DNA from: Candidatus Latescibacterota bacterium
GTDB lineage: Bacteria; Latescibacterota; UBA2968; UBA8231
Length of the DNA: 64,000 nucleotides
NCBI GenBank assembly: GCA_965261395.1
Contig: OZ253462.1
Location: 6,208,001 to 6,272,000 of the forward strand
Direction: 5' to 3'
Part shown: one piece after another, positions 34,580-54,280 of the stretch
Numbering within the stretch: position 1 is the first letter of the stretch
Layout: every line of letters begins with the position of its first letter
Notes under the pieces: model-generated
Databases searched by the model: none
The model's input: only the letters and a program-made list of their open reading frames with translations
What the model was told of the DNA's origin: nothing
Made by a program: the position numbers and the translations under genes

Positions 34580-34870
34580 TTGCCCGCAGGTGCCCCCGCC
34601 CGCTTGGGCAAAGTCTTCATCTATGATGTGGCCTATTCACCCGATGGTGCATGGCTGACAGTGAGTACCCAACTCGCCGACCTGCTCGACCGGCCCGGTG
34701 TGCGCGAGCACGGCTGGGAGATGCGCCTAGTGCGCCTGTATGCGCCGCCAGCGGGAGAACGAGCGGATCGGCGCATTTATCCGCCAGTTGCAGGATAAGT
34801 ACAAAGCCGAGGTCGCCGTCTTCGTGGATTGGTAGCGGCTATCTTGACAGCCCTAGGTTTTGGACCCTAC
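34580..34870 (+). pseudogene. Mosaic scar: WD40 N-terminal remnant fused to deleted copy of foldase 3' region
   Basis: PAGAPARLGK..VAYSPDG then LADLLDRPGVREHGWEMRLVRLY matching 31541-31643 with deletions. Confidence 0.8.
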
Positions 34871-34950
34871 CTAATAGTTTTTGCATCCACTCATGCAGCA
34901 AGCGCCGCGGCAAGGGCGGGCCGCTGGCGAGCGAGGGAGAACGCGAAGCG

Positions 34951-37900
34951 ATGAAGAGCCACTCCGCTGTGCAGATCCTCGTCGGCCTAGCACTGAGTTG
35001 GGCATTGGCCGAGGCCCAATCGGGCTATCAGATCGTCGGCGACGAAGTCGTAGTCGAGCGGGCCAGCCACTGGCAGCGGTGGTCTATTCCCACCCATCTG
35101 GCGCGCATCCAAGAGGACGGCTCGGTGCGGGCGCACGCCCTGCGGACGGTCTTCAACGTCCTAGACGATCCCGGCTTCAAGCGTCCGATCGTCATTAGCA
35201 AGTCCGAGCCGCGTATCGGCACCATCGACAGCACCATGCAGTTCGACGTGTTTGGCGAGCCGATACGGAACACGCTCAACGAGCTGGTCTTCGACTATTG
35301 GGTGCGGCCCGGTATCAGCCGAGTGGGATCCAATCCTCAGCTCGCGGCCAACATTCTCGACGGCGACCCCACCACGTTTTGGGAGCCAGACCCGCGCGAC
35401 CCCATTGAGCAGTGGTGGATCGAGGTGGACTTGGGGAGGGTGGTGCCGGTGGAGCGGCTCAAGCTCCAGTTCGTTGATGAGTCGCTCGGGGATCCTTTCC
35501 TGCGCTTCATCATGCTGCTGTCGGACCGGCAGAGCGCGCTTTTGCACGAGTCGAATAGCCGCATCGGCTTCCAGCTTTTCATCCCGCAAGACGCGCCCAA
35601 TACCACGCAGCGCGAATACATCTTCGAGAGCGAGCACACCAGCCCCGAACTCCCCCCGGCCACTGGCGTGGTCAGCGACAAGGAGCTCGTGGAGAGCTTG
35701 CGCCGCTCGCCCGAGTGGACCGGGCGGAAGATCGAGACGATCCGCATTGTCATCACGGATACGCGCGGCGGCCGGGCCGAGCAGATTGCGCAGGAGGCGT
35801 GGGAAGCCCTGGCGGAAGCAGAGCGCGGGGATATCGTCTATTTTGCGCGCGACGTGGCCGGCCGCGAGGAGCCGGTGGACGAGGCCACCTATCAGGCTTT
35901 AGAGGCCCAGCGCCAAGGGCGGCGGGATTTCTACCGCCGCGAGTTGCCGCGCCTAGCCGGGGTCGAAGCGCACGGCTGGGGCGACAACTTGGCGATCAAC
36001 CTGATTGAAAACGGCGGCTCGTACGTGCTGACGACCGATGGGACCAATACGCTGCTTGCGTTCGACGGCGCCGCCAGCACTGGATTTTCACACCAGATCC
36101 GCAATCCGAAAAACCCCACCGCCAACGTACTGACCATAGATATGGGAGGCATTGTGCGCTTGGCTCAGACCCGCTTAGTGGGCAGTAGCCGGGGCTACAT
36201 CATGCGCGCCTCCACGGGCGAGCGCGACGCTCAGGGCAATCTCAAGTGGCAGCGCATCAGCCCGGAGGAACGCGAGCGCAATATCTTCACCGGCCACTTC
36301 CTCGACATCGCCGACATTCAGGACCCGCCAGTTTTGACCCGCTTCCTCGACATGGTCACCATCGGCCACGTGCCCCCGGGATTTAGGGCCACCGGCCCGG
36401 GCGGCACCGGCCACATGAACCAGTTCTGGTCGTATCATCATGAGCTCATGCTGCTCGCCGAAGGTCCGCCGGCCGAGGTGGTACTAGAGTCGGATCTGAT
36501 CGAGTTGCCGGGGTTGGTGGGCTTGGGCGCGGTGCGCTGGGAGGCGAGCACGCCCCCGGGCACGGATGTGGAGATTCGCACCCGCACCGGCGACCAGCTT
36601 TTGCAGCAGATCCGCTATTTCGACAAGACCGGCAACCAGAAGACCGCGGCCGAGTACAAGACGCTGGCCGGTTTTCTGAAGGGGCCTTCGGACACGACCG
36701 TGGTGGTGGGGCCGGGCTGGAGTCCGTGGAGCCAGCGCTACTTGCAGCCGGGGGACTTGGCCACTTCGCCGGGCCTGCGGCGCTTCATGCAGATTCAAGC
36801 GCGTCTCAAAAGCAGCGGCCAAAACGCGCCGGCCTTGCACCGCATTGCGGTGGCGTTCCACCAGCCGGTGGCCCAGTATCTGCGGGCCGAGGTGTGGCCG
36901 ACCGCAGCCGCGGCTGGGGTGCTCGACACTTTCTCGCTCTACGTGCAGCCCAACTTTTTGCAGCAGCCGGCCGCTGTGCGCAGCCCGGGCTTCGACCAAC
37001 TGCTCTTGTACGCGGAGCCGTCGTTTGCGCTAAAGATCGTCGATGTGGCCATGGGGACCGAGGCCGAGCTGTTGGCTGAGACGCCGGTCCAGTGGGGCGA
37101 CGAGCTAACGGTACGCGCCGAGGGCGATTCGCTGTGGCTGGAATTCCCGCAGACCGTGCAGGACGCGCCGACCGACGTGCTCACGCCGGTGTACTACCGG
37201 TCGGTTGTCCCCGGCGATGAGGTGCCCACTGGATTGGATCGCAACCTGTTGACCTTTACCTCGCATAGCCTCTTGCCGGATGCCGAGCGGGGTGCCGTGC
37301 GCTACTTCCGGCGGCTGGCAAACGGTAGCTTGGCCGAAGTGGACGCCGCGGACTACGACGCGCTCAGCGCGGACGAGCAAGGGCCGGTGCGCTACTTCCG
37401 CAAGGTGGTCGGGCTGGGCGATCAGGTGCCCTTTGACGCGGCTGGCGACAGCCTCGACGAGCGGGGCTACGGCCGGCTGGGCAGCCAGCGCGGTTGGGTG
37501 GTGGGTCGCGGTCGGCTGTTGCGCGTGCGCTTTGCCGGGCGGGTGTACCTGCAAGGGACGCGGATGCAGGTCGCCGTGCGGCAGAGCCAGCCGGCGACGC
37601 CTTGGCAGGGGGCCGACGGAGGCGACGCGACGGCCTTGAGTCCGTCCAAGAGCCTGTCGATTGGCGCGCAAGGGGCGCGGGCCACCATCGACGATATTGC
37701 TATCGCGCCCAATCCGTTTACTCCCAATGGCGACGGGATCAACGAGACTGCGGAGATCGACTTTTCCCTGTTCCGCGTCCAGGTCGCACGGCCGTTGACC
37801 CTTCATCTATATACGCTGGCCGGACGGCGGGTGCGGCAGTTGGTGGGGCTGGCCACCGGCGGGCCGCAAAAGTTTAGATGGGACGGGAAGGACGAGGCCG

Positions 37901-38007
37901 GGCAGGTAGTACCGCCGGGGTTGTACTTGTGTCAAATCGCAGTGGAGGCAGATGCAGCAGGAGTCGGAGGGACGACCCGCACCCGCCTCATCGCCGTTGC
38001 ATATTAA
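34951..38007 (+). CDS. Large secreted protein with discoidin-like domains and FlgD-Ig tail (paralog A1)
   Basis: Signal peptide MKSHSAVQ; DGDPTTFW..WIEVDLG; IRTRTG..WSPWS..SPG.RRFMQ; PNPFTPNGDG..WDGKDEAG..VAY*. Confidence 0.75.
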   Translation: MKSHSAVQILVGLALSWALAEAQSGYQIVGDEVVVERASHWQRWSIPTHLARIQEDGSVRAHALRTVFNVLDDPGFKRPIVISKSEPRIGTIDSTMQFDVFGEPIRNTLNELVFDYWVRPGISRVGSNPQLAANILDGDPTTFWEPDPRDPIEQWWIEVDLGRVVPVERLKLQFVDESLGDPFLRFIMLLSDRQSALLHESNSRIGFQLFIPQDAPNTTQREYIFESEHTSPELPPATGVVSDKELVESLRRSPEWTGRKIETIRIVITDTRGGRAEQIAQEAWEALAEAERGDIVYFARDVAGREEPVDEATYQALEAQRQGRRDFYRRELPRLAGVEAHGWGDNLAINLIENGGSYVLTTDGTNTLLAFDGAASTGFSHQIRNPKNPTANVLTIDMGGIVRLAQTRLVGSSRGYIMRASTGERDAQGNLKWQRISPEERERNIFTGHFLDIADIQDPPVLTRFLDMVTIGHVPPGFRATGPGGTGHMNQFWSYHHELMLLAEGPPAEVVLESDLIELPGLVGLGAVRWEASTPPGTDVEIRTRTGDQLLQQIRYFDKTGNQKTAAEYKTLAGFLKGPSDTTVVVGPGWSPWSQRYLQPGDLATSPGLRRFMQIQARLKSSGQNAPALHRIAVAFHQPVAQYLRAEVWPTAAAAGVLDTFSLYVQPNFLQQPAAVRSPGFDQLLLYAEPSFALKIVDVAMGTEAELLAETPVQWGDELTVRAEGDSLWLEFPQTVQDAPTDVLTPVYYRSVVPGDEVPTGLDRNLLTFTSHSLLPDAERGAVRYFRRLANGSLAEVDAADYDALSADEQGPVRYFRKVVGLGDQVPFDAAGDSLDERGYGRLGSQRGWVVGRGRLLRVRFAGRVYLQGTRMQVAVRQSQPATPWQGADGGDATALSPSKSLSIGAQGARATIDDIAIAPNPFTPNGDGINETAEIDFSLFRVQVARPLTLHLYTLAGRRVRQLVGLATGGPQKFRWDGKDEAGQVVPPGLYLCQIAVEADAAGVGGTTRTRLIAVAY

Positions 38008-38077
38008 TGTGGGGCCGATCGGCCGATTGATGCCGCGCCCCGTCCGTCGCAGTGGCTGGTAGATGTTGCATATCAAT

Positions 38078-38105
38078 GTAGGGGCGACCGGCCGGTCGCC
38101 CCTAC
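38078..38105. repeat. GTAG-type REP-like perfect palindrome
   Basis: GTAGGGGCGACCGGCCGGTCGCCCCTAC is its own reverse complement. Confidence 0.8.
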
Positions 38106-38119
38106 CAAAGGAGGTTGTT

Positions 38120-40783
38120 GTGAGACCAAAGACCGGATTGTATTGCGGTCTCCTATTGTTGTGGAGCGCGGTCGGCGCGCCAACCGTTGCGCAGGGCCAG
38201 TACGGGACGCGCTTGGGCTTGCAGCTCGGCGACCAGACTAGTCTCGCGCCCCAAGGCCCAGGGGTGTCTCTGAACGCGCTCGACCCGGCCGTGCGCCGTT
38301 GGTACGTGCCGCAGGAGCTGTACAGCGAGTACCAATGGCGGCAGTGGGAATACACCAACTATGCGCGCAATCCGTATGCGCGCTACGTGGAAACAACCTT
38401 GGAGGGCGATTACTTCTACGATCTGTACGGCAATTTCCTCACCCGTGGCTGGCTGATTTTCAACAACTCGCAGAGCAAGCCCCAGCAGTTCGGCAACGTG
38501 CTGTTCAAGTCCTCCCGCTTCCAGAACTGGTTTTCCGAAGTCGTGGTGGCCCAAGACAACAAGGGCCAATACTTCTACACCTTGACGGCGAGCAGCCGCC
38601 TGCGCTCGGTGCTGTCGCCGATGGTGTTTGCCAAGGCCCGCATGGACGGCGTGCAGTTCGACCTCGCTACCGACCGCTACGAAGCCACCTTTTTGTTTTC
38701 GCGGCTGAGCAATCCAGGTGGCGGCACGACCGGGGACCGCGAGGTGCTGCGGACCAACAACACCATCTTGGCGGGCGGGCGATTGGGGGTCCAGCTCGGC
38801 GACTTTGCGGAAGTCGCGCTGCACATGGCCAACGCCCACCAGTCGCATACCTTGCTCGACAAGCAGGCTGGCAACCCATTCGCCGGCTCGCTGACCATCG
38901 GGCAAAACAAAACCATCTCGCTGGTCAAGCTGGTGCTGCGCGACGACTCGCCCGAAGACGGCGTGGGCGGCGCGGCGTTTTTTCCCGATGCGTCGGACGT
39001 GCAGATCACCTATCGCGATGGCTCGGCGGAATCGGGCAAGGCCATTGGCTTTGAGCCGGTCATCGAAGGTGGCTTCTTGCAGCAGGGCTTTGTCGCGGCC
39101 AACGGGCCGGAGGAGATGCGGCTGGTGTACGACTTCGACAGTCCGGCCTTTGTCGATCAGGCCCGTTTTGCCAAGGACGAAATCGCCCAAGTCGAATTCC
39201 TGCTGACGCTGGGCAACGACTACCAGGTTTGGATGACCTCGGACCGCCAGATCAACCTCGATGGCCAGGAGGTCTTGCTGCTCGTCGCGCAGGCCGAGGG
39301 CAATGTTCAGGACATCACCAATTTGCAGACCATCCGCTTCGAGTACGGCCTGCCCACGGCGACTCATATCTTTGGCGGCAGCGTCGAGTTGCAGGATCTG
39401 CGGGGCTTCGACGTGTACGGCGAGTACGACCTGAGCTGGAGCTATCGGAAGTACCCCAACGTGCTCAAGGAGACCCACGAGGCCTTCTCAGGGATTGGCG
39501 GCCGGCCCTCGGCACCCGCTTGGATGGTCAACGTGTCCAAAAAGGCCGCTCCCTACTTCGCCTTCGGTGAGTTTTACAGCATGGATCCGCGCTACAACAC
39601 CCAGACCTTTATCACCTCGGGCACTGGGGATTTCGACTACGACAACGAGCGCGGCTTGGTCGATTTGGTCGATGACAACGACGATCAGGACAAATTCCCG
39701 GACAACGTGCGCTTCGACTTTCTCAGTGGCGATCAGCAGGTCTTTCCGGGCTGGGATCAAAACAACGACTTCGTGCCCGACTTCAACCAAAACGACACGT
39801 TCGTGCGCTCGAATACCGAGCCGGACTACGAGGAGGCTTTTCTGCGGTTTTACGTCGATCGGCCCGAGTTTCTCTTTGGCGTCGATATGAACAACAACTT
39901 TTGGGTGGATCAATACGAAAACGACGAGGAGCCGGATTATCCGTATCGCCGGGATCACCGGGGATTCAACATCCACCTCGGGGCCGACATCACGCCACGG
40001 GCGCGCTTGGTGGTGGGCGCACTGCGCGAGGGGCTGATTTCCTCGGCGCGCAAAAACGAGAGCAATTACCTGATGTTCACCTGCGAGCGCGATGAGTCGC
40101 GGCTGGGTCGCTTCCGGGTGTTTGAGATGAGCAAGTTGGTCAAGGACGACATTCCCAACCCGTTGTTGCAGTGGGCACCCGACAATACGCTGCGCGGCGG
40201 CGAGCTGACCAAGGTCGAGGACCCGCTGTTGGCGCGCGACACCTGGGTCAATCAGCTTTTTGTCGGCCACAATCTACAGGTGGCGGCGCTCTTTTTGACC
40301 ACTAAGATGCACTGGCTCTACTTCCATCAGCAGATGGAAAAAGCCCAGCGGCAGCAGTACGGCTTGGCACCTTCTGACTTCTTCTTCGGCCTGATCAACA
40401 AAGCGAGCTATCGCTTCCAACTCGGGGCGTGGTCTTTGGAGCCGCGTTGGAAAAGCGAGCTACGCAAGCAGAGCCGCAGCTTGCTCTCACTCAATAGCCA
40501 CACCAGCCTGATGGAGCTGTTTTCGGGCTTGGTGGAGACGCAGGTCTTGCAGGTTACTAAGCTCCAGGCCGGGGTGGAGTATGCGATCTTCAACGATTTC
40601 GACGCCAACGACTTCGACTTCGACGCGGTGACCGTAGCCGTCCAGTTTAGCAATGAGTCCAACTATCTCGGCTACAAGCTCCGCGCGCTGACCGGCATGA
40701 AAGTAGAGCGCAAGCAGTTCACTGGGCAGCAGGCGCGGACGACCAACGAATCCTTTGTGACGATTTACGCGGGGCTGAACTAG
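38120..40783 (+). CDS. ~890-aa exported hypothetical protein, putative outer-membrane beta-barrel (paralog B1)
   Basis: AAGGAGG RBS before GTG; signal peptide; amphipathic beta strands; DDNDDQD/WDQNND acidic loops; ends FVTIYAGLN. Confidence 0.65.
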   Translation: MRPKTGLYCGLLLLWSAVGAPTVAQGQYGTRLGLQLGDQTSLAPQGPGVSLNALDPAVRRWYVPQELYSEYQWRQWEYTNYARNPYARYVETTLEGDYFYDLYGNFLTRGWLIFNNSQSKPQQFGNVLFKSSRFQNWFSEVVVAQDNKGQYFYTLTASSRLRSVLSPMVFAKARMDGVQFDLATDRYEATFLFSRLSNPGGGTTGDREVLRTNNTILAGGRLGVQLGDFAEVALHMANAHQSHTLLDKQAGNPFAGSLTIGQNKTISLVKLVLRDDSPEDGVGGAAFFPDASDVQITYRDGSAESGKAIGFEPVIEGGFLQQGFVAANGPEEMRLVYDFDSPAFVDQARFAKDEIAQVEFLLTLGNDYQVWMTSDRQINLDGQEVLLLVAQAEGNVQDITNLQTIRFEYGLPTATHIFGGSVELQDLRGFDVYGEYDLSWSYRKYPNVLKETHEAFSGIGGRPSAPAWMVNVSKKAAPYFAFGEFYSMDPRYNTQTFITSGTGDFDYDNERGLVDLVDDNDDQDKFPDNVRFDFLSGDQQVFPGWDQNNDFVPDFNQNDTFVRSNTEPDYEEAFLRFYVDRPEFLFGVDMNNNFWVDQYENDEEPDYPYRRDHRGFNIHLGADITPRARLVVGALREGLISSARKNESNYLMFTCERDESRLGRFRVFEMSKLVKDDIPNPLLQWAPDNTLRGGELTKVEDPLLARDTWVNQLFVGHNLQVAALFLTTKMHWLYFHQQMEKAQRQQYGLAPSDFFFGLINKASYRFQLGAWSLEPRWKSELRKQSRSLLSLNSHTSLMELFSGLVETQVLQVTKLQAGVEYAIFNDFDANDFDFDAVTVAVQFSNESNYLGYKLRALTGMKVERKQFTGQQARTTNESFVTIYAGLN

Positions 40784-41848
40784 ATGCACCGGCTAGCAGC
40801 CATATTGGCCCAGCGCGGGCGCGTCTGGCCAAAGGCCGCGGTCTTAATCGCGCTCAGTATCGGTCTCAGTGCGTGCGATGGGAAATCGCCAGGGGAGCAA
40901 CACTACTGGTCAGGCCATGCATACCAAGAGCAGGGCATGAAAGCCAACGCCCTGCGCGAGTACCGGAGTGCAATCGAGGTAGGGATTGATTCTCCCGCCG
41001 CCTATTACGCGCTCGGAGCGCTCTATGGCGAAAAGGACGAGCACGGCAAGGCCATTGCTGTGTACCGCGAACTCGTGGAGCGCTGGCCCGGAGAACGTCG
41101 CGCGCAGGAGTTGCTGGCGGCCCGCTATGTAGATGCCGGGCAGTCGGTCGCAGCCGCCAGTCTCTATCGGACCCTGCTGGACCAAGGTGGCGATCCCGCC
41201 GCGTTGCTCGGTTGCCTAGGCGACGCACAGAGCCTGAGTGGCGACCTGCAGAGTGCCGCCCAGTCCTACGGCGACTTGCTGGTGCTGCGTCCCGACAGCA
41301 GCCGGGCCCGGTACCAGCTAGCGCGCATTCACGAGGCCGAAGGCCGGGTCGAACCGGCGATTGCGGCCTACGCTGAGCTGTTGGGCCAAAAGTCCTATGC
41401 GCGGCAAGCGGCCTTGGGGCTGGCGGACCTCCTCATTGAAATGGACCGCCGCAGCGGCGAGTTGGGCCGCGCAAGGGCAGAGGGCTGGTGGCGGCAGCAA
41501 GGGCTGGTCGGGGAGGAAGCCATGCAAAAGGCGGAAGCGCAGCTCGAGGCCGCGCTGGGGGAAAGGCCCGATTCAAGCGCCGACTTATGGGGGCTGGGCA
41601 AGCTGTTCTTTTGGCAGGGGCGCTACCAAGAGGCCCTCGTCTGTGTCGCCGCGCTGGCTGAGACCACCCCGGATGACTATCGGGTGTATTTCTTTCTGAG
41701 CAAGCTCTACGGACTGCTGGGCGAGGAAGAGGCCGCACGGGAAGCTTTTGCCCAGTACCAGCACCAAGAGCAGCGCGCCAAAGTCGCCGCGCGCGTCCAA
41801 ACCGAGAGAGACGTGTTGCTGAAACAATTGTCGGGGAAAACGCCATGA
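40784..41848 (+). CDS. TPR lipoprotein
   Basis: LSAC lipobox; AYYALGALY, ARYQLARIH, WGLGKLF TPR units. Confidence 0.8.
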   Translation: MHRLAAILAQRGRVWPKAAVLIALSIGLSACDGKSPGEQHYWSGHAYQEQGMKANALREYRSAIEVGIDSPAAYYALGALYGEKDEHGKAIAVYRELVERWPGERRAQELLAARYVDAGQSVAAASLYRTLLDQGGDPAALLGCLGDAQSLSGDLQSAAQSYGDLLVLRPDSSRARYQLARIHEAEGRVEPAIAAYAELLGQKSYARQAALGLADLLIEMDRRSGELGRARAEGWWRQQGLVGEEAMQKAEAQLEAALGERPDSSADLWGLGKLFFWQGRYQEALVCVAALAETTPDDYRVYFFLSKLYGLLGEEEAAREAFAQYQHQEQRAKVAARVQTERDVLLKQLSGKTP

Positions 41849-43893
41849 AAGCCGCGTTGCTGATTGGAGTCCTAACTGCGTGCTTGGTGCAACCGCTAGC
41901 GGCCCGACAAATCCTGCTCATCGGGCAGGACGGGCAGATTTCGTGGACCGGGCGGGTCGAAGGGGCCGAGGGCATCTCGACTATTCGGCCCGAGCACCGC
42001 TCCTTTCTCGACCCCAACATCACTGAGATAGGCCATGCGCCGGCCGACTTGATCGAGTTTGACAGCGCGGATTTTCCGGGCAGCATCTTGCCGCGACGGG
42101 TGGGTGCCGAGCAGAATTTGGCCACAGAAGTGCTGGAGCGCGGCGGCTCGCTGCGCGCACCGACCGTCTTCGACCTGACCGCCTTGCAGTTACAGGTGAT
42201 TTTCGAGGACATGCTCGCGGCCGATCCGACCGGGCAGGCATTCGAGCGCAAAGAAGACGACATTTTGGGGACCCAGATCATTCTCGACCTAGGCGCGCGC
42301 TTTGGGGTCAATCGGGTGCGCTTCTTCCCGCGCAACACGGTCTTTCTCTCGCCCGGCACCCCCTTTCAAAACGACTTTTTGAAAAACTTTGAAGTGGAGA
42401 TCAACGACGGCTTGGTGCTGACCAACTCGGGCAACCCGATTTGGGAAACCTATGCCGTGCGCGACGACAACAGCGACCGGATCACCGAAGTGCTCATCGA
42501 CCCGCCGCGCTACATCCGCTTCATCCGCCTGCGGGCCATGTCGGCCATTCCCTTTGAGATCGAGAAGCTCCAGGTCTTTGGCGAGGGGTTCTTTCCGACG
42601 GCGCGCTATATCTCGCCGATCATCGACATGGGCAGTCCGGCCAATTGGGGCCTCATCCGCACCTTGCAGCAGCAAGTAGGCGCTGCGGACATGGCCGACA
42701 TGCAGTTGCGCACCCGCAGCGGCCACGACCCCAGTCCCCTGGCGTACACCCGCAAGCAGGTGGCTCTGCAAGATGCCCCTGAGATCCCGTTGTCCGTGGG
42801 CAATCCGGGCGAGCCGCTGCTGCGCAACGAGTACTTAAAGCTGCCCGAGCGCGGGCGTCAGGGCGACGATTGGGAGCGCGGCTCAGTGCGCGACGACTTG
42901 GCGAATTGGAGCCCGTGGACCTCGCCTTATGCGCTGGAGGAGCTGGCTGCGGGCACGCAGATTCTCTCGCCTGGCCCCAGCCGCTACTTCCAATTTCGCG
43001 TGGAATTCCAGAGCCAGCACTTGGAGGCGAGCCACATTCTCCAACAGATCGGCCTCGAATTTTCCTCGCCGCCGCTGGCCGATGCCCTCATCGGCGAGAT
43101 CTTCCCCCGCGAGGTTCCGGCCGCGGCGGACGTGCCCTTTGTGTACGCGGTGCGGGCGGAGATGGAGAGCGATCAAGTGCAGGGTTTCAACAGCTTTGAG
43201 GTGTTTACTCCGAGTCGCGTGGGCCGCGTCGAGCGGATCGAGGTTATCGACGCCAGCGGCCAACAGGTGCTCGACCACGCCTTTGCGGTCGCCGATGGGG
43301 TTACAACCGAAGGCGAGGTCGCTATCACCGCCATTGACGACCAGCGCTTTGCAGTAAGTTTCCCGGCCATAAACCAGCACGACGCCGTGCTGAAAATCCA
43401 CTTCGTCAGCCGGGTGCTGGCCTTTAGCACTCGCTTTGGCGGTCGCGCCCTGCTGCTAGAGGAGGATGCCTTTCAGGGTATTACTCCGGGCAACGCGGCC
43501 TTGTTGGAGGAGAGCGACGTGGCGACCGAATCGGGGACGACGGTGCTGAGCCGGGCGGTGAACCAGGGCAGCTTGATCGGCCACTTCGCCCTCGGCAGCG
43601 AAGTCTTGACGCCCAATGGGGACGGGGTGAACGATGTCCTCGACGTCAATTTTGAGGTGCTGGCGGTTATCGGCAAAGCGCGGATTGTGATTGACCTGTG
43701 GGATTTAGGGGGTCGGCGGGTGCGCCGCCTCTTTGAGGCCGAGGGGCAAAACGGCGTGTACGACGCCGTGCATTGGGACGGTACAGATGAGCGGGGCCAG
43801 CGCGTTGCCCCCGGCATCTACTTGGTGCGGACCGAGGTGCAAGGGGATGCGCGCAGCGGGCAGACGGTGCGGACCCTGTGCGTGGCGTACTGA
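41845..43893 (+). CDS. Secreted FlgD-Ig-tailed protein (paralog A2)
   Basis: DLGARFGVNRVRFFPR, RTRSG, WSPWT, SPGPSRYFQ, GEIFP, TPNGDGVND, ends VAY. Confidence 0.75.
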   Translation: MKAALLIGVLTACLVQPLAARQILLIGQDGQISWTGRVEGAEGISTIRPEHRSFLDPNITEIGHAPADLIEFDSADFPGSILPRRVGAEQNLATEVLERGGSLRAPTVFDLTALQLQVIFEDMLAADPTGQAFERKEDDILGTQIILDLGARFGVNRVRFFPRNTVFLSPGTPFQNDFLKNFEVEINDGLVLTNSGNPIWETYAVRDDNSDRITEVLIDPPRYIRFIRLRAMSAIPFEIEKLQVFGEGFFPTARYISPIIDMGSPANWGLIRTLQQQVGAADMADMQLRTRSGHDPSPLAYTRKQVALQDAPEIPLSVGNPGEPLLRNEYLKLPERGRQGDDWERGSVRDDLANWSPWTSPYALEELAAGTQILSPGPSRYFQFRVEFQSQHLEASHILQQIGLEFSSPPLADALIGEIFPREVPAAADVPFVYAVRAEMESDQVQGFNSFEVFTPSRVGRVERIEVIDASGQQVLDHAFAVADGVTTEGEVAITAIDDQRFAVSFPAINQHDAVLKIHFVSRVLAFSTRFGGRALLLEEDAFQGITPGNAALLEESDVATESGTTVLSRAVNQGSLIGHFALGSEVLTPNGDGVNDVLDVNFEVLAVIGKARIVIDLWDLGGRRVRRLFEAEGQNGVYDAVHWDGTDERGQRVAPGIYLVRTEVQGDARSGQTVRTLCVAY

Positions 43894-45969
43894 ATGAAAG
43901 GAGACGTCGTGCTGAATAGGATAGAGCGGATGGGCTGGCTGAGCGCGGTGCTGGCGGTGGCTTGGACCACTAGTGTGTGGGGACGCGGCGAATTTCGCCT
44001 CGGCGGCCCAGATGGCAATTCTTGGCAGGCCCTAGTCGCCGAGCAGACGGCTGCGTACGTGCTGCTCGACGCCGAGGGCGGCATCGTCGAGGAGGTGACC
44101 ATTGGCGCGGTCGCCGATGAGGTCAGTGTGCGCTTTAACACCGCGGGCGTCGATACCTTGATTGATTTTGCCGATGGCGGCCTGCGGCCGGTGTACATCG
44201 ATCCGAGCGCAAACCTGGGGCTGTCGATCAAGGAGCGCCAAGGGCACTTTTACACGGCCAGCATTTACGGCGGCACGCACTTGGTAACCGACTCCCAGCC
44301 CTTGCAGTTTCTCGTCGACGGCGATCCGACGACCGCCATGTTGGTGCGAGTGCCCGAGCCGCCGCGCTTGGCCGGCCGCAACAATCCCGGAGTGGTCAAG
44401 AACAACGTCATTCACTTGGGGGCCGAGCTGCCGATCAACCGCCTCCGCTTCTTCCCCCGGCCTGGGTTTGAGGACAACTACTTGGCTTGGTACGAAATCG
44501 GCGTGGCCGACCGCACCGCGCCGTTTTGGGACAGCAACTTTGACCGTAGCCAGCGCGGCAAGCGTTGGTACATGGTTATTGACGCGGCCTTGGGTGCGCC
44601 CAACGACCCGGCCTTTGACATCTTGGCGCGCAACCGCGAAAGCCTCGACGTGGTGGTGGATTTGCGCTTCCCCACCCGCGACCTCAAGTGGGTTGCCATC
44701 CGCCCGCTCGACCCCGAGCGTGACTGGGAAATCGCCGAGTTCGAAATCTATGGCGAGGGCTTTGTGACCCGGACGACGTACCGCACCCCGATCATGGATT
44801 TTGGCCGCGAGGTCGCCTGGAGCAAAATTCGCTGGCAAGGCGAGGTGCCCGAGGGGACTCAGCTTTTGCTCCGCACCCGCACGGGCAACACGCCGCAGCC
44901 CAACATCTACCGCACCATTGGCCCGACCGGCACCCTCGAAGTATCGACCCTCGACGAATACCTGACCCAGCTCGGCCTTCGGCGGTGGGACAATGTGGAG
45001 TTGGGCTACGACCTAGAAAATTGGAGTTCTTGGTCCGCGCCCTATGAGCTCGCCGCTGGGCTGCGGCAGACCGAACTGCCGGCGGATTTGTGGCAGGACG
45101 GCACGCCGGTGCTGTCGCCGAGTCCAGCGCGCTACTTCCAGCTAGAGGCCATCCTGCTCGCCAGCGGCGACGCGGCCCCGCGCATCGACCACATGTCCCT
45201 GCTGTTCTCCGAGGATCCAGTGGCCCAAGAGGTGGTTGGAGAGATTTGGCCGATCTCCACGCAGAGCTTTGCGGCCGAAACCTTCACCTATGTGGTGCGC
45301 CCGGTTTTGCGCGCCAGCGACTTGGGCTTTGACCGGCTGGAGATTTTCACTCAGATCCCGGTGGAACGAGTGCATTCGGTGCTCATCGACGGCGAGGAGA
45401 TCAGCGACCGCTTCCCACCCGAGATCCAAGACGACCGCCTGATAGTCTCGTTCGACCGCTTGGTGGGGCCGCGCGACAACGAGAAGCGGATTGAGGTGGT
45501 TTTCGACGCCAAGGTCTTGCGCTTTGGCGCGGACTTCAGAAGCTGGGTGTACGACAGTGCCGAACCCGAACTCAAGCAGCAGGTCGCCCCGGGCAACGCG
45601 ACGTTCCGCTTTGGCGGCGACGTAGTATCGGTGCGCACGCCCATGGGCGGCGGCCTCATCCGCAGCGTGCAGGCCACGCCGGCGACCTTTACGCCCAACG
45701 GCGACGGCGTCAACGACCAAGTCGCGATTGCCTACGAATTGCGCGACTTGGAGAGCCTGCGGCAGATCCGCTTGCGAATCTACGACCTGTCCGGTCGACT
45801 GGTGCGCCAAATCGCGGCTAGCACCGGCAGCGGTAGCTTTGCCCAAACCTGGAATGGGCGCGACGAAGAGGGCGCACTCGTGCCGCCCGGCATGTACCTC
45901 TACCAGCTCGATTGGGACACCGACAAGGGCCGCGAAGTGGCCAATGGCGCAGTGGGCGTGGCGTATTAG
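43894..45969 (+). CDS. Secreted FlgD-Ig-tailed protein (paralog A3; start may be GTG 43909)
   Basis: INRLRFFPR, RTRTG, WSSWS, SPSPARYFQ, GEIWP, FTPNGDGVND, ends VAY. Confidence 0.75.
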   Translation: MKGDVVLNRIERMGWLSAVLAVAWTTSVWGRGEFRLGGPDGNSWQALVAEQTAAYVLLDAEGGIVEEVTIGAVADEVSVRFNTAGVDTLIDFADGGLRPVYIDPSANLGLSIKERQGHFYTASIYGGTHLVTDSQPLQFLVDGDPTTAMLVRVPEPPRLAGRNNPGVVKNNVIHLGAELPINRLRFFPRPGFEDNYLAWYEIGVADRTAPFWDSNFDRSQRGKRWYMVIDAALGAPNDPAFDILARNRESLDVVVDLRFPTRDLKWVAIRPLDPERDWEIAEFEIYGEGFVTRTTYRTPIMDFGREVAWSKIRWQGEVPEGTQLLLRTRTGNTPQPNIYRTIGPTGTLEVSTLDEYLTQLGLRRWDNVELGYDLENWSSWSAPYELAAGLRQTELPADLWQDGTPVLSPSPARYFQLEAILLASGDAAPRIDHMSLLFSEDPVAQEVVGEIWPISTQSFAAETFTYVVRPVLRASDLGFDRLEIFTQIPVERVHSVLIDGEEISDRFPPEIQDDRLIVSFDRLVGPRDNEKRIEVVFDAKVLRFGADFRSWVYDSAEPELKQQVAPGNATFRFGGDVVSVRTPMGGGLIRSVQATPATFTPNGDGVNDQVAIAYELRDLESLRQIRLRIYDLSGRLVRQIAASTGSGSFAQTWNGRDEEGALVPPGMYLYQLDWDTDKGREVANGAVGVAY

Positions 45970-45978
45970 GCTGGAGAA

Positions 45979-48708
45979 TTGGCGTTGACTAGGGCTATTC
46001 ACTGTGAGAAGCTGTCTGTAAGCCCCCGGCGGACGTTTGCCTTCTGCGCCGCGTTGCTCGGCCTCGCCCTGGCCGACGGGGCTTACGGTGACCGCTTGGG
46101 ATGGCAACGGGAAGTAGCGCAAAGCCCGGAGGTGTACCTCGACGCCCTCGACCCGGCCCTGCGGCGCTGGTACGTGCCGCAGGTGATGTTTGCCGAATAC
46201 CCGTGGCGGCAGTGGGAGTACACCAACCGCGCACGGCTGCCGTATCAGCGCTACGTGAACATCGACTTGGAGGGCGATTACTTCTACGATCTATACGGGA
46301 ACTACCTGACCCAAGGCTGGCTGATCTTCAACACGGCGCAGAGGCGGCCCGAGGAGGCCGGTAGCTCCCTGTTCAAGACCCAGCGGTTTGCGCAGTGGTT
46401 CAACCAGCTGGTCATCGCCGGCGATCACAAGGGCCAATATCACTACGCGCTGACGGTGAGCAACAACCTGCGGACGACCTTGACGCCGCTGTCGTTTTCC
46501 AAGCCGCGCCTGAACGGCATGCAGATCGACCTCGCCACCGACAAATATCAACTGACCTTTCTCCACTCGCTGGTCACCGGCCCGCGCGGTTTGCAGGTGG
46601 AGGAGAGCCGCTTTACGGACGCGACTTCTCTCGTGGGAGGGCGGTTCACGGCCCAGCTAGGGGATTTCGTGGAGTTGGGCGTACATGCGGTCAACGCCCA
46701 CCAGACCAACAGCGAGTCGGATCAACTCGTAGAGACTCTGTACAAAGGCGGGCTGAACGAGCAGCAGAACGAAACCATTTCCCAGATCGCGATCGCCTTG
46801 CGGGACGACTCGCCGGAAGACGGCCGCGGCGGTGCCGCGTTCTTCCCAGACGCCTCAGACGTGATTATCACCTACCGCGACGGCACGGTGGAGTCGGGCC
46901 GCGACATTCGCTTTGGTCCGGTGATCAGCGGCGGCTTGGAGCGGCAGGGATTTCTCACTGCGGATGGCGACGGGCAGATCAGCCTGCTCTACGACTTTGA
47001 CAGCGCGTCGTTTGTCAACCGCGCCTCGGCCGATAAATCCGAGATCACGGTGGTAGAATTTCGCCTCGTGCTGGCCAACGACTACCAGATCTGGATGAGT
47101 TCGGACCAGCAGTTGGGGGAAGGCGGCGGCTTTGTAACGGTCGGTCGGCCATCGAGCACGTTTAGTTGGACGGGCGAGCGCAGCATTAGCTTGGGCGACG
47201 TATTCGGGGCGGATGTGGAGGACCCGGTTTTCTTGCTGGTGGCGCAGGCCGAGGGCAATGTGCAGGACATATCCAATCTGCGCACGGTCCGCTTTGAATA
47301 CGGCCTGCCAACGGCCACAGCGGTCGCCGGAGCCACGCTCAAGGTGGAAGACGTGCTTGGCTTCGACCTGTATGGCGAATACGACCTGAGCTGGGGCTTC
47401 CGCAAGTATCCCAATGTCGCCGAGGAGACGCACACTTCCTCAGCGGGCATTGGCGACCGGCCCAGCGCGCCGGCGTGGATGGTGAACCTGAGCAAGCACC
47501 TGGGGCGGCTGTCGCTGTTCGGGGAAGTGTATTCGATCGACCCGCGCTACAACACCCAGTCCTTTGTCACCACGACCTCGGGCCTCGATTACGCCCGGCA
47601 GGGCAACCGCTTTGACTTAGTGGAAGACAACGACGATCAAGACCGCTTCCCCGATGGGTTCCGCGCGGATTTTTTGGTCAACGACCGCTTGGTCTTTCCC
47701 GGCTGGGACCTCAACAATGACTTGGTGCCCGACTTCAACCAAAACGACAACCGGGTTAAGGCCAACGCCATTCCAGATTACGAGGAGCCGTTCCTGCGCT
47801 TCTTGGTCGATCGGCCGGAGTTCCTCTTCGGCGTGGATATGAACCACAACTTCTGGGTCGATCTATACGAAAACGACACCGAGCCGGACTACCCCTACCG
47901 CCGCGATCAACAAGGCTTCAACGTCTATGGGGGCATCGACCTGAGCCAGCACTGGCAGCTCAAGGTGGGGGCCTTGCGCGAGGAGCAGATTTCGGCAGAT
48001 CGCAAAAACCACAGCACGTATTTGCAGCTAGGCTACGAGCGGGCTTGGCCGCGGGTGGGTCGGGTGCGGCTCTTTGAGATGAGCCAGTTGGTGCAAGACG
48101 ACATTCCCGATCCGATTTTGCAGTGGCAGCCAGACAACACGCTGCGCGGCGGCAAGCTCGTGCATATCGACGATCCGCTGTTGGCGCGCGATGCTTGGGT
48201 CCACCAGCTATTCGTCGGCCATAGCCTGACCAGCGACGCGCTGTTGGTGATGAGCAAGCTAAACGGGGTCGTCTTTGCGCCGCGACAGGGCGATGCGTCG
48301 GACTTCTTCTTTGGCTTGGTCAACAAGGCCAGCTATCGCCGCACTTGGCGCGGGCTGACCCTAGCGCCGCGCTGGAAGAGCGAGTGGCGCCAACAGAGCC
48401 GGTCGCTGTTTGACCAGGAGGAGCGCACGACGCTGATGGAGCTGTTCTCGCTGCTTTTGGAGACGCAATTATTGCAGGCCACGCGGGTACAGGCCGGTGT
48501 CGAGTACGCGTTGTTCAACGACTTCGACCGCGATATGGAGAGTTTCGACTCCCTGAGCTGGGCCTTGCAGTTGGCGACCGAGTCGGCCTATTTGGGCTAC
48601 CGGATCCAGGCGTTGGCCGGCTTTGTGGTAGAGCGCAAGGCGTTTGCGGAGGCAGAGGCCGCAACGACGACCGAGACCTTTGTCACGCTATACGCCGGCT
48701 TGCAATAG
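45979..48708 (+). CDS. ~900-aa exported hypothetical protein, putative outer-membrane beta-barrel (paralog B2)
   Basis: Colinear with B1 (ALDPAxRRWYVPQ, DDSPEDG, FEYGLPTA, DMNxNFWVD); ends FVTLYAGLQ. Confidence 0.65.
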   Translation: MALTRAIHCEKLSVSPRRTFAFCAALLGLALADGAYGDRLGWQREVAQSPEVYLDALDPALRRWYVPQVMFAEYPWRQWEYTNRARLPYQRYVNIDLEGDYFYDLYGNYLTQGWLIFNTAQRRPEEAGSSLFKTQRFAQWFNQLVIAGDHKGQYHYALTVSNNLRTTLTPLSFSKPRLNGMQIDLATDKYQLTFLHSLVTGPRGLQVEESRFTDATSLVGGRFTAQLGDFVELGVHAVNAHQTNSESDQLVETLYKGGLNEQQNETISQIAIALRDDSPEDGRGGAAFFPDASDVIITYRDGTVESGRDIRFGPVISGGLERQGFLTADGDGQISLLYDFDSASFVNRASADKSEITVVEFRLVLANDYQIWMSSDQQLGEGGGFVTVGRPSSTFSWTGERSISLGDVFGADVEDPVFLLVAQAEGNVQDISNLRTVRFEYGLPTATAVAGATLKVEDVLGFDLYGEYDLSWGFRKYPNVAEETHTSSAGIGDRPSAPAWMVNLSKHLGRLSLFGEVYSIDPRYNTQSFVTTTSGLDYARQGNRFDLVEDNDDQDRFPDGFRADFLVNDRLVFPGWDLNNDLVPDFNQNDNRVKANAIPDYEEPFLRFLVDRPEFLFGVDMNHNFWVDLYENDTEPDYPYRRDQQGFNVYGGIDLSQHWQLKVGALREEQISADRKNHSTYLQLGYERAWPRVGRVRLFEMSQLVQDDIPDPILQWQPDNTLRGGKLVHIDDPLLARDAWVHQLFVGHSLTSDALLVMSKLNGVVFAPRQGDASDFFFGLVNKASYRRTWRGLTLAPRWKSEWRQQSRSLFDQEERTTLMELFSLLLETQLLQATRVQAGVEYALFNDFDRDMESFDSLSWALQLATESAYLGYRIQALAGFVVERKAFAEAEAATTTETFVTLYAGLQ

Positions 48709-48783
48709 TTGGTTGTATTTGGCGAGTCATTTGACTACATTTGCAGTTCATCGTTCATCGTTCATCTACCCAAGGAGGTAGCT

Positions 48784-49716
48784 ATGAAGCGTCTTTTTAC
48801 CTGTGGCCTTACGGCAATTGCCCTATTGGCCTTTGCGCTAGCCGCCGGGGCGCACGAGCCCCCGGGCGAGGTCTTCCTCGCCGTGCAGTTCCCCGATTCA
48901 CATGTGCCGAACATCGACGGATTTGACGACGATTGGTCGGCGGTGCCGCTCGAAGTGTACGCCGTTCCCAGCTCGAGGCTCTTTTCGGTGCATGGCTTTG
49001 CTGGCGACGACGTGTCGCGCGGCGGCATGGATCCGGCCTCGATGCAGATCCGCCACATCTTAGGCTGGAATGACTCGCGCAACGAAATCTATGTGACGAC
49101 GAAGATATTCGATAACAAGCACACGATTACCCGCCAAGACTTAGGCTCCTATTGGTGGGACGATAGCATTGAGATCGAGTTCAATCCGCGGCACGACTAC
49201 TTGCCCAAGCCCGAAGACGTGGTGACGCACCACAAGTACTCGTTCGCGTTCCCGCCGCTCAACGGCAATTTCGGCCCGGCCCTGCAAACGGCTGCGGTCA
49301 GTAGCGCCGACGTCGAAAACCCGACGCTGTTGTCCAATGGCAGCCGTTGGTACTACTGCACCTATAGCTTCGAGGGCGAAGAGTACGGCGAGAGCACGTA
49401 TATCTACGAGTTCCGCACGATTGCCATTGATTCGTATCCCAGGCCCACCGAGGAGAATATCACGGAAGATCAGGTGATTGAGCACGACCTGACCGCGGGC
49501 GAGGTGATCGGCTTTTCGATTTTCGTCAGCGACGTGGACGACAGTGCCGGCGATGCCGACAACCGCGTCGGTATGTGGGCGACGACTCCGACGACCTGTT
49601 GTCACTCTTCGCAGGACCTGCTCATCTCCCCCATGGACGACACCATTGATTGGGGCGAGGCGACTGCGGTTGAAGCGCAGAGCTGGGGTCGGATTAAGCA
49701 CCAGTATCAGCAGTAA
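48784..49716 (+). CDS. Secreted CBM9/DOMON-like protein with C-terminal TAVExxSWGxIK motif
   Basis: AAGGAGG RBS; PNIDG.DDDW, WWDDSIEI, IGFSIFVSDVD; ends TAVEAQSWGRIKHQYQQ. Confidence 0.65.
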   Translation: MKRLFTCGLTAIALLAFALAAGAHEPPGEVFLAVQFPDSHVPNIDGFDDDWSAVPLEVYAVPSSRLFSVHGFAGDDVSRGGMDPASMQIRHILGWNDSRNEIYVTTKIFDNKHTITRQDLGSYWWDDSIEIEFNPRHDYLPKPEDVVTHHKYSFAFPPLNGNFGPALQTAAVSSADVENPTLLSNGSRWYYCTYSFEGEEYGESTYIYEFRTIAIDSYPRPTEENITEDQVIEHDLTAGEVIGFSIFVSDVDDSAGDADNRVGMWATTPTTCCHSSQDLLISPMDDTIDWGEATAVEAQSWGRIKHQYQQ

Positions 49717-49738
49717 TACCCGGTTCCGCACCCCTTGC

Positions 49739-49773
49739 AAAGCCCGCTTGCCCCTATGGCAGGCGGGCTTTTT
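49739..49773. terminator. Intrinsic, probably bidirectional terminator
   Basis: AAAGCCCGCTTGCC-cctat-GGCAGGCGGGCTTTTT between convergent genes. Confidence 0.85.
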
Positions 49774-49778
49774 GCGTC

Positions 49779-50513
49779 TTACAGCCCGAGTAGGCCGCGG
49801 GCATTCTCGCCGAGGATGAGGCGCTTGGCGTCGTCGTCAATGGCCGCGGTGATGATCTTGCCAAGCTGCGGGCGGGGGTCCATCAAGGGAGTATCCGAGC
49901 CAAAGAGAACGCGGTCGGCTCCGGCCTTGGCCACCAGCTCTTCGACGACGCCTGGGGTGCGGAAGGTCGAACAGGTTTCGAGGAAGTAGTTGGGCAAGCG
50001 CTGGGCCGCGGCAATGGCTTGGCCGCGATACGGCTCGATGTTGCCGGAGTGGCCGGCGACGAAGCGGGCGTTGGGGAAGCGCGCAGCCGCGCGGCCAAAC
50101 TGCGCGGGCGCGGCTGTTGGCTCGCCGCCTGTGTGCGCCAAGATTGCGAGGCCGCGCTCAGCGGCAAACTCGTAGATTGGATCCCAAGCCGGGTCATCGA
50201 GCGGAAAGGGCGTATAGGGCGGGTAGATTTTGATCGCCCGGAACCCGAATTCGTCGATGGCCCGTTCCAACTCGGGCTGCACAGTGTCGGGGCAGGTGGG
50301 GCACACATAGGCGAAGCCAATGAAGCGGTCGGGGTGGCGGGCGACAAAAGCCGCTGTCTGGTCGTTGCCGGGTTTGCCGTCGGGATGGAAGATGTTGAAG
50401 ACGCAGCTTTTGTCGATGCCCACCGCATCCATGGCGCGCAGCATCTCGGCCGGGTCATCGACCATGTCGAGGGCATCCCAGCGGCCTACGTGGCCGTGAA
50501 AGTCGATAATCAC
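49779..50513 (-). CDS. Amidohydrolase family protein
   Basis: IDFHGH, LAHTG, AGHSG, VLFGSDTP. Confidence 0.9.
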   Translation of the reverse strand: MIIDFHGHVGRWDALDMVDDPAEMLRAMDAVGIDKSCVFNIFHPDGKPGNDQTAAFVARHPDRFIGFAYVCPTCPDTVQPELERAIDEFGFRAIKIYPPYTPFPLDDPAWDPIYEFAAERGLAILAHTGGEPTAAPAQFGRAAARFPNARFVAGHSGNIEPYRGQAIAAAQRLPNYFLETCSTFRTPGVVEELVAKAGADRVLFGSDTPLMDPRPQLGKIITAAIDDDAKRLILGENARGLLGL

Positions 50514-51289: not shown

Positions 51290-51307
51290 GGCATTTGGCT
51301 CGCAGGG

Positions 51308-52204: not shown

Positions 52205-54199
52205 TCACTGGAACACAATCCCGCCTAGATAATTGTTTTGCATGCCGGTTACATAGTCGATGAGTACCCAAGTCCCGGCCACTACGGCCTCGCCTAAGAC
52301 CAGCCCTAAAAAGAAGGGTTTGAGACGATTGAAGAGCGTCAGCCCTCCGTATTTGAGCACGACGCTTTTGATGATCCAGGCGATGAAGACGCTGAACCAC
52401 ATCTTGCCGAAGACGCAACTGACCGGAAACCCCAGCGAGTGGAAGGGCCACCACAGGAACCGGTACTGGACGGCCATCAACCCGCCCATGATCGCCGCGC
52501 CAGTGCCGATGTGCATCCACGTACTCGGCCGCGGCTCGAACGGATTGAGAATGCTTTTCTCCATGAACCGATAGGGATATTGCGCGACATTATCAAAATA
52601 AAATCGCGACAAATTAATGGCCCCGTACTGGTAGCCTAGATAGAGAGTCAAGGTAACGACGCAGCCCAGCGTCAAGATGATCACCGCGACCGTGGCACCA
52701 AAGAGGCGACGGCGATGGGGCAGGCTGATCTCGGTGACGAGTTTCAGGCCGTTGGCGCAGGCGCTCATCATTAGTATCAAGGTATCCACGCTCCATGCAT
52801 AGCTCAGGGCCATGCCAGCCATGCCCTTAGTGCCCAACAAGGTGCCCCCGACATTGGCGACGACGAAGTCCGGCCCATTCGTCGGCGGAAACATCGCCGC
52901 CACCCCACCTTGCGCGACGACGCGGGCGATGGTCATAAATCCGATAAAGGCACCAAAAAGCAGCAGGGGGACAAAGAGCAGCGGAATACCGGATTGCCAG
53001 AGCCAGACGCCCATCGTCAGGAAGCTGATGATAGCTCCCCACACGGCGACTCGGTAGGACATGATTTCATCCGCGTCGGTTACGTCCGGTGCTCCGAGAA
53101 AAGCCTTGCGCAGCACGTCCCTGATGTGCCCTCTACCCACCCAAAGCGACCCCACCACCAAGACGATCATGCCGCCCATGGCTTGGTGGATGATGATCGG
53201 ATCGGTGTACTGGCTGTACGCGCCCATGGTCTCGTCCCTGCCCCCCCAAGCCAGCATCCTCAACAACCCGCGCTGCACCACATTCACGATGTGAAAAAAG
53301 ACCAAACCCAAGGCTATGTTCTGCGGGACGAAATAGGAGAAGCCCACCATCGACAGGCTTAGATACAGACTCAGCGACACCGCACCGCGGAACACCGACA
53401 AGCCATCGAGCGAGACACTGACGGTAGGAACGACCACAAAGTAGTTGTGCAAGGCGTTGATCGAGGCCAGGACAAAGGGGAGAGAAAAGCCCAGCCACAT
53501 CAACCCACTGCGGAACAGGGGTTTGATGGTCCGTCCGCGGCCGTCGTCGGCGATCATGGCTAAGGGAAGCTGGACCATGGGATAGGCCAAGCGCTCGCGC
53601 TCCACCCACTGCCTCCGCACGATCACCATCAGGCAGACCATAGCCAGAAAGAGGGCTAGGCCGAACACGGCCCAGTAGAGCATGGGGGCCGCCCAGATTG
53701 CCCACGGCACGGCCCCGGTCGGGTCGCCTTCGTAAAAGCCCCAGATGGCGTCGCGGCTTTGGGGCACCGGCCAATCGGGCATGTAGGGCTGGACGATCTC
53801 GGCCCAACCGTTTTCTGGCGTGGCGTAGTAATAGGCCCCGGTGATTACCGGCAGGAGTTGCGCGGGCAGGCCGCGGCTCGACAGGGTGTTGGCCAGCAGA
53901 ATCAGAAAGAAGGCCACGGCCAATTCGCCGCGCTGCAAGGGCAGGCGCGGATGCAGCAGCTTTAAGAGCGGGTTTAAGAGGACGACCAGCACAAAAAAGA
54001 GAAAGATCGCCGCAGGAGTCAGATTCCACACGGCCAGCCCAGAGCCTTTGACGATCATGTCGTTGTAGGTCGAGCCAAGGCCGATACAAACGGCACCGAG
54101 CAGCCCGACGATCAGCGCCTTGGGCGTGCATCCCTTGGTCGTCGGTGGCGAGCGCTTGAGCAAAGTATTCTTCCCGCGAAGAGTAAAGTTCTCCCCCAT
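52205..54199 (-). CDS. Multi-pass membrane protein, DUF6785/DUF6784-like (start uncertain)
   Basis: RRQWVERERLAYP, WWPFHSLGF, LKYGG..FFLGLVLG; paralog of 9992-11950. Confidence 0.75.
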   Translation of the reverse strand: MGENFTLRGKNTLLKRSPPTTKGCTPKALIVGLLGAVCIGLGSTYNDMIVKGSGLAVWNLTPAAIFLFFVLVVLLNPLLKLLHPRLPLQRGELAVAFFLILLANTLSSRGLPAQLLPVITGAYYYATPENGWAEIVQPYMPDWPVPQSRDAIWGFYEGDPTGAVPWAIWAAPMLYWAVFGLALFLAMVCLMVIVRRQWVERERLAYPMVQLPLAMIADDGRGRTIKPLFRSGLMWLGFSLPFVLASINALHNYFVVVPTVSVSLDGLSVFRGAVSLSLYLSLSMVGFSYFVPQNIALGLVFFHIVNVVQRGLLRMLAWGGRDETMGAYSQYTDPIIIHQAMGGMIVLVVGSLWVGRGHIRDVLRKAFLGAPDVTDADEIMSYRVAVWGAIISFLTMGVWLWQSGIPLLFVPLLLFGAFIGFMTIARVVAQGGVAAMFPPTNGPDFVVANVGGTLLGTKGMAGMALSYAWSVDTLILMMSACANGLKLVTEISLPHRRRLFGATVAVIILTLGCVVTLTLYLGYQYGAINLSRFYFDNVAQYPYRFMEKSILNPFEPRPSTWMHIGTGAAIMGGLMAVQYRFLWWPFHSLGFPVSCVFGKMWFSVFIAWIIKSVVLKYGGLTLFNRLKPFFLGLVLGEAVVAGTWVLIDYVTGMQNNYLGGIVFQ

Positions 54200-54280
54200 C
54201 CCTGCCCGCGTTTTGCTTCTCTCTTGACAATGCCCGTAGCCGCGCACGACCTTCCGCATACACAAACAGGAGACCCTATT

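Follow-up and report, generated by a model that had tools for sequence, protein, structure and literature searches.

Here we describe a gene cassette in a Candidatus Latescibacterota bacterium whose best-supported reading is the cargo-carrier logic of type IX secretion, probably carried out with an unrelated, much larger partner family and private helpers, outside Bacteroidota. The cassette lies in a stretch of 64,000 nucleotides (the window; assembly GCA_965261395.1, contig OZ253462.1, positions 6,208,001 to 6,272,000), in which positions 34951-49716 hold a tight same-strand (+) gene order A1-B1-TPR-A2-A3-B2-C, where the A genes encode secreted proteins with a conserved C-terminal tail, the B genes encode a large unannotated family, and the remaining two encode a tetratricopeptide repeat (TPR) protein and a small secreted protein, C. 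The A-B arrangement is far beyond chance, as it occurs at 32 loci of this genome and at 78 of 79 loci elsewhere. We propose, with confidence that is about evenly balanced, that the A tails have in B their cognate outer-membrane carrier or anchor, in the way that SprB has SprF, and that the role of the cassette is capture at the cell surface.

The same-strand run had been pointed out in a preliminary description made from the letters alone, and the open reading frame (ORF) layout confirms it, since seven ORFs on one strand (34651..38007, 38063..40783, 40784..41848, 41845..43893, 43894..45969, 45979..48708 and 48709..49716) follow each other with junctions of -4 to +55 nt. The start of A1 was set at 34951, because the preceding 100 codons of its ORF align to nothing in A2 or A3 and the signal peptide begins there. 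For B1 the GTG at 38120 is the probable start, given that its close homologues measure about 887 aa, and C probably starts at 48784, because the Met there precedes the signal peptide. The closing terminator of that description stands in part: a GC-rich hairpin followed by TTTTT is legible at 49741-49775, but the consensus terminator scan did not list it. Two things had been missed, namely the 32-fold amplification of the cassette and the upstream SurA-like peptidyl-prolyl isomerase (PPIase) gene that belongs to it. The features are as follows.

34951..38007, plus strand: A1, 1018 aa, secreted; F5/8 type C (discoidin) domain plus a conserved beta-rich core; type-B-like tail of about 100 aa that ends in VAY
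38120..40783 (ORF opens at 38063), plus strand: B1, about 887 aa, signal peptide, unannotated family; Asp/Asn-rich conserved insert, YAGLN end
40784..41848, plus strand: TPR protein, 354 aa; Pfam TPR families; probable lipoprotein (LSAC, lipobox read by eye)
41845..43893, plus strand: A2, 682-aa A-family protein with VAY tail
43894..45969, plus strand: A3, 691-aa A-family protein; tail above the Pfam CHU_C and FlgD_ig cut-offs
45979..48708, plus strand: B2, 909-aa paralogue of B1 (57% identity), in a separate conserved "second B" clade
48784..49716 (ORF opens at 48709), plus strand: C, about 310 aa, secreted; CBM9-like by language-model neighbours only
30269..31903, plus strand: SurA-like double-PPIase, Pfam Rotamase_2 and Rotamase; probable lipoprotein (LLAGC, lipobox read by eye); recurrent cassette component
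49741..49775, plus strand: GC-rich hairpin and T run, read from the sequence; probable terminator shared with the convergent downstream gene
52205..54334, minus strand: DUF6785/DUF6784 polytopic membrane protein (Pfam); possibly an associated inner-membrane permease

Linkage and amplification of the A and B genes

The genome is a single contig of 6.55 Mb, which we searched with phmmer using our own ORF set. It carries 46 B genes distributed over 32 loci, and a full-length A homologue is found in every one of these loci. Altogether there are 143 A genes, 28 C genes and 28 genes for SurA-like double-PPIases, and the A, B and C genes together occupy 482,310 bases, or 7.4% of the genome. The same-strand gene directly upstream of a B gene is an A gene in 30 of the 46 cases, another B gene in 9 and something else in 7. 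C accompanies B in 21 of the 32 loci, while 25 of the 28 PPIase paralogues lie within 8 genes of a B gene, so that 25 of the 32 loci hold one.

By comparing the paralogues with each other, we found that the identity between B proteins tracks that between the A proteins encoded upstream, with r values of 0.58 for the A core and 0.43 for the A tail, and 0 of 2000 permutations reached these values; the co-diversification that the preliminary description had put forward as a check is seen within this one genome. Furthermore, 17 loci show the order A-B-T-A-A-B, and in these the first and second B proteins form two clean clades that hold all 34 sequences (34/34) with a support of 1.0. We may therefore conclude that both B positions are old and have been retained.

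The linkage extends to other genomes. A scan with a 17-row B alignment, taking one genome per species, gave 79 loci, and an A-core homologue (the query excluded the tail) adjoins B in 78 of them, the exception being a B gene cut by a contig end. The homologues and related records are mostly from Candidatus Latescibacterota. We then sampled 151 genomes of the phylum with the B profile and a single tail-less A3 core query at a strict E <= 1e-10. Of these genomes, 95 gave B and 76 gave the A core, and all 76 also hold B, which answers to the co-occurrence that had been proposed as a check; because the sampled genomes are related, the counts serve to describe a pattern, not as a statistical test. 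Nineteen genomes carry B without a match to the single strict A query, 13 of them in one family, and 56 lack both A and B, including two whole families (0/30 and 0/19). Two members of one family and genus (G060 and G086, genus g5) have 90 and 77 B candidates, among the most in the sample, and no A3-core match at E <= 1e-10; in them the partner of B may come from another family.

The A tail and the type IX secretion parts

The motifs that the preliminary description listed for the A proteins all recur as invariant columns in the alignment of A1, A2 and A3: R643, T644, R645 and G647; W690, S691 and W693; S706, P707, R711 and Q714; E747 and P750; G780 and F781; T1024 to G1029 (TPNGDG); and the closing V-A-Y. 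In Pfam, FlgD_ig and CHU_C (PF13585), both with a gathering cut-off of 27 bits, fall on roughly the last 100 residues of each of the three proteins. The A3 tail exceeds both cut-offs (CHU_C 42.7 bits, FlgD_ig 31 bits), and the A1 tail scores exactly 27.0 bits for FlgD_ig, that is, at the cut-off. Among 27 A-family members that are A3-type relatives, CHU_C (at E <= 0.1) is matched in all 27 and FlgD_ig in 26. The F5/8 type C domain of A1 (36.7 bits, cut-off 28.2) has weak matches in 5 of these 27 relatives.

The tail has a conserved PNPFTPNGDGIND block and ends with a hydrophobic residue, then A or V, then Y. The block resembles what we take to be the signature of type-B C-terminal domains (CTDs). 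A PNPFTPNGDGIND-block motif within the last 125 residues together with this ending is present in 123 of the 5271 genes of the genome, of which 121 belong to the A family and 2 are fragments near B loci, so the tail is private to the A family. The CHU_C and FlgD_ig matches and the conserved block bear out the earlier suspicion of a type-B-CTD-like tail, and support its assignment as a type-B-like (CHU_C/FlgD-Ig) domain of a type IX secretion system (T9SS).

A search for SprA, PorV and PorU homologues had been recommended, and a translocon, a sortase and a PorV-like gene are all present. SprA_N reaches 78 bits (cut-off 27) in an ORF of 2164 aa, the single SprA-type ORF of the genome; PorU scores 618 bits against a cut-off of 420, and the adjoining PorV-like gene scores 150 bits, under the cut-off of 250. 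PorP/SprF (PF11751) had no match genome-wide, B adjoining A instead, and neither GldL nor GldM (TIGR03513, TIGR03517) was matched in the genome; these negatives are weak, because control genomes also gave no match. SprA was found in 143 of the 151 sampled genomes, including families without the cassette, and the cassette is therefore accessory to a broader translocon and not its core.

Elsewhere in the window, an 825-aa ThuA-PKD-CBM6 protein (11947-14424, plus strand) carries a weak type-A Por_Secre_tail (26.4 bits, cut-off 27), which adds to the genome a second class of sorting tail, distinct from the first.

The B family and its possible roles

B1 aligns colinearly with B2 (57% identity across 890 residues), and the alignment reproduces the acidic loops (VDDNDDQD in B1, VEDNDDQD in B2) and the terminal YAGLx (YAGLN, YAGLQ) noticed beforehand. 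All B paralogues have a signal peptide and a conserved F-x-T-x-Y-A-G-L end. No hydrophobic helix is found in B, and 21 segments of alternating hydrophobicity are spread over both halves of the protein. The Asp/Asn-rich insert is the most conserved stretch, with 6 invariant Asp between residues 519 and 597. The family is large, comprising 682 clusters at 50% identity (E <= 1e-3), 181 of them at E <= 1e-30.

Searches of B1 and B2 against Pfam and NCBIfam gave no match, so that the absence of SusC, TonB-receptor or Omp85 models, first judged by eye, holds against these libraries. Neither Plug nor TonB_dep_Rec is matched in B, and all 22 Plug genes of the genome lie elsewhere, which together argue that B is not a TonB-dependent receptor. 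Profile searches with two B alignments against PDB sequences gave chance-level matches only, and none of the 30 nearest Atlas clusters has a common Pfam family. Among named Atlas clusters the nearest (0.88) is a barrel DUF resembling TonB receptors, a lead only; Pfam DUF6029, the family of this lead, was tried as the B family and rejected, as in this genome it matches a different gene. Partial matches to SlpA_C, an outer-membrane barrel, occur in 12 of 53 B members, all sub-threshold (best 30.2 bits, cut-off 35) and spanning only profile positions 232-308; B1 itself has none, and in this genome one divergent paralogue alone is matched, at 17.9 bits. Mean-field direct coupling analysis of 227 non-redundant B sequences (effective number 120) gave local or gap-driven signals only, antiparallel ladders being no commoner than the parallel control. 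The signal peptide, the absence of helices and the alternating segments are indirect signs that B may be an outer-membrane barrel.

It is highly unlikely, in our judgment, that B is not integral to the outer membrane but is secreted or periplasmic, a beta-rich scaffold that binds calcium and does no more than co-occur with A. The Asp/Asn-rich insert, with its 6 invariant Asp, is typical also of calcium-binding loops in soluble proteins, and the C terminus does not end in an aromatic residue, both of which would suit such a scaffold; however, the alternating-hydrophobicity segments across both halves, the weak SlpA_C barrel matches and the barrel-like Atlas lead speak against it. SlpA/OmpM-type barrels (SlpA_C; PMC9388160) resemble B in this weak partial profile similarity alone, and B differs from them in that every match is below the cut-off and that it has no surface-layer homology (SLH) or coiled-coil part.

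In the carrier reading, A1, A2 and A3 would be exported by the Sec pathway as lectin-type beta-sandwich domains with a private type-B-like T9SS sorting tail of about 100 residues, and would cross the outer membrane through the single SprA-type translocon of the genome. B1 and B2 would be large outer-membrane proteins acting as cognate carriers or anchors of the tails that belong to the A proteins encoded immediately upstream, and as a consequence of this proposal the binding domains would remain displayed on the cell. The TPR lipoprotein and the SurA-like PPIase lipoprotein would act at the periplasmic face, and C would add a further carbohydrate-binding-type module. The many diverged copies would then provide many binding specificities, most likely for the capture of glycoconjugates or other nutrients.

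The closest parallel is with type-B CTD cargo and its PorP/SprF partners. Published work shows binding of SprF to SprB, and of PorP to PG1035 together with PorE (PMC9143113), and a requirement of type-B substrates for cognate PorP/SprF shuttles, which are often encoded adjacently (PMC12618676). The cassette shares with the SprB-SprF and PG1035-PorP-PorE systems a CHU_C-type tail of about 100 residues, a partner gene that immediately adjoins that of the cargo, a large number of cognate pairs in the genome, a TPR periplasmic helper and the presence of SprA and PorU. On the other side, B has no PorP_SprF similarity (PF11751 is not matched) and measures 887-909 aa against about 300 aa for the PorP/SprF barrel, the A tail ends in VAY and also scores as FlgD-Ig, the cassette has a PPIase lipoprotein and a CBM9-like protein in addition, the host belongs to Latescibacterota and not to Bacteroidota, and GldLM had no match. 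The CBM9-like label of C, taken over from the preliminary description, is itself a lead only: C has no match in Pfam or NCBIfam, including CBM9 (PF06452), and its nearest Atlas clusters (0.97, 0.97, 0.93) carry CBM9_1 in 13%, 37% and 100% of their members. The TPR protein has weak PorW/SprE and PorE matches in NCBIfam, far under the cut-offs.

Several findings weigh against B as a carrier. For 47 of the 143 A genes the nearest B gene is over 15 kb away, and A outnumbers B by about three to one. B does not resemble PorP/SprF in sequence, exceeds them in size about threefold, and has the sub-threshold SlpA_C match as its only family hint. The tail itself scores unevenly, since CHU_C is below its cut-off for A1 (22.7 bits) and A2 (24.6 bits), A2 is below that of FlgD_ig too, and NCBIfam TIGR04131 (cut-off 35 bits) is unmet, with 31.3 bits for A3, 13.8 for A1 and no match for A2. 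The co-divergence of A and B may reflect duplication of the whole cassette, which alone would give it, and the lack of a GldL, GldM or PorP match belongs here as well, within the limit set by the controls.

The RNA data call for caution. Two studies, with four metatranscriptome runs between them, yield contigs of 90-99% identity to the window, which lie over 28 of the 30 bins of 30000-49900 and bridge the A1-B1, A2-A3 and B2-C junctions, but such contigs show presence and not strand, transcript ends or level, and with DNA carry-over possible they do not prove transcription. Both uncovered bins fall inside the WD40 gene upstream of A1; within this gene, two runs give one bin a very high depth (123.9 and 154), followed by two empty bins, which may stem from WD40 repeats of other organisms. 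Contig depth over the C region (48592-49900) is 75.9, 84.8, 73 and 58.8 in the four runs versus about 3-18 for the rest of the operon, which hints at most at a C transcript that is separate or more stable, as contig depth cannot rank genes.

Could B, with the PPIase and TPR lipoproteins, instead be a private export pore, an outer-membrane translocon for its own A proteins that works as a smaller SprA-PPI-SprE analogue or in a two-partner-like manner? The composition of the cassette does parallel the SprA-PPI-SprE Extended Translocon of Flavobacterium johnsoniae (PMC10994853), in which an outer-membrane protein of large size is likewise joined by a peptidyl-prolyl isomerase, a lipoprotein with TPR and CTD substrates; the tail is private to the A family, and the missing GldL/GldM motor match (likewise missing in the controls) would also fit. 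Yet SprA, PorU and a PorV-like gene are present, SprA is near-universal (143/151) including cassette-free families, 47 A genes have no nearby B, and the window holds no energy source. Moreover, compared with SprA, B is under half the size, has no SprA_N match and exists in 46 copies versus one, and no SkpA/PorD partner is seen in the window. We consider such a pore decidedly improbable.

An uptake role analogous to SusCD, in which B is a large outer-membrane channel, A and C are surface ligand-binding partners and the tail only delivers A, appears unlikely to us, and it and the carrier reading are not mutually exclusive. It would account for the lectin- and carbohydrate-binding-type domains on A and C, for an amplification to 7.4% of the genome that resembles polysaccharide utilization loci, and for the recurrent neighbours of the cassettes, which include FG-GAP/UnbV_ASPIC proteins (25) and DUF6785/DUF6784 proteins (19), as well as PhyH, amidohydrolase, aldo-keto reductase and lactonase genes; a 255-aa family without a Pfam match (9) also recurs. 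Like SusC/SusD loci, the cassettes are many diverged copies that combine surface binders with a large, predicted outer-membrane protein near transporter and catabolic genes. Unlike them, B matches no Plug, TonB-box or SusC model and 22 ordinary Plug receptors are encoded elsewhere, while the A proteins are tailed Sec/T9SS-type proteins and not SusD-like lipoproteins; an ExbB gene is found in one divergent B locus only. This locus (G000:C1:5294000-5325000) has B genes at 5305048-5307987 and 5311966-5314935, and its MotA/ExbB-family gene at 5301107-5301439 is the only one of the genome's six that lies inside a B locus.

The preliminary description had cast A and B as a partner pair for either uptake or anchoring. 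The pairing itself is backed by genetic linkage, co-occurrence and co-divergence. A broader picture joins the two roles, which we think less likely than not: an unrecognised outer-membrane nutrient-capture machine of Latescibacterota, in which a new family of giant calcium-loop barrels would hold tailed lectins and pass on whatever these bind with the help of a private PPIase and TPR lipoprotein, a SusCD replacement made from T9SS-derived parts. The binding of A to B, the dependence on SprA, and the ligand and nutritional role assumed here are our inference.

Genes around the cassette and its significance

DUF6785/DUF6784 proteins are encoded twice in the window, at 9992-11950 (plus strand) and 52205-54334 (minus strand), each with at least 10 hydrophobic segments. 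Downstream of the operon, the regions 49779-52141 (minus strand) and 55605-57902 hold genes for Amidohydro_2, a 259-aa unknown protein, PhyH, a 7-bladed lactonase and an MFS transporter, and small amidohydrolase (5) and PhyH (4) families stand beside other cassettes. The WD40 gene mentioned above (32020-34518, plus strand) lies between the PPIase gene and A1 and encodes a secreted protein of 832 aa; it is not recurrent at other cassettes. Further upstream, a type II CBASS (cyclic oligonucleotide-based antiphage signaling system) operon occupies 19246-24949 on the minus strand, with the oligonucleotide cyclase at 23948-24949, the E1-E2 protein at 21256-22359, the JAB protein at 20747-21259 and a SAVED-endonuclease effector at 19246-20706; a DDE transposase gene at 22442-23452 separates the cyclase from the remaining CBASS genes.

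Our literature search found no paper on the A/B cassette, none combining Latescibacter* with "type IX secretion" and none mentioning DUF6785 or DUF6784, and the main text of a paper on sponge Latescibacterota (PMC12993501) does not speak of secretion, outer membrane or TonB.

The Latescibacterota are widespread, uncultured bacteria, and sponges are a common source according to record titles. A cassette that takes up 7% of the genome, with a core protein that has no annotation, is probably central to the contact of these cells with their surroundings. If B does partner the tailed A proteins, the cognate cargo-carrier logic of the T9SS would reach beyond Bacteroidota by way of an unrelated family, and the cassette would offer a natural collection of surface binders together with their matching anchors.

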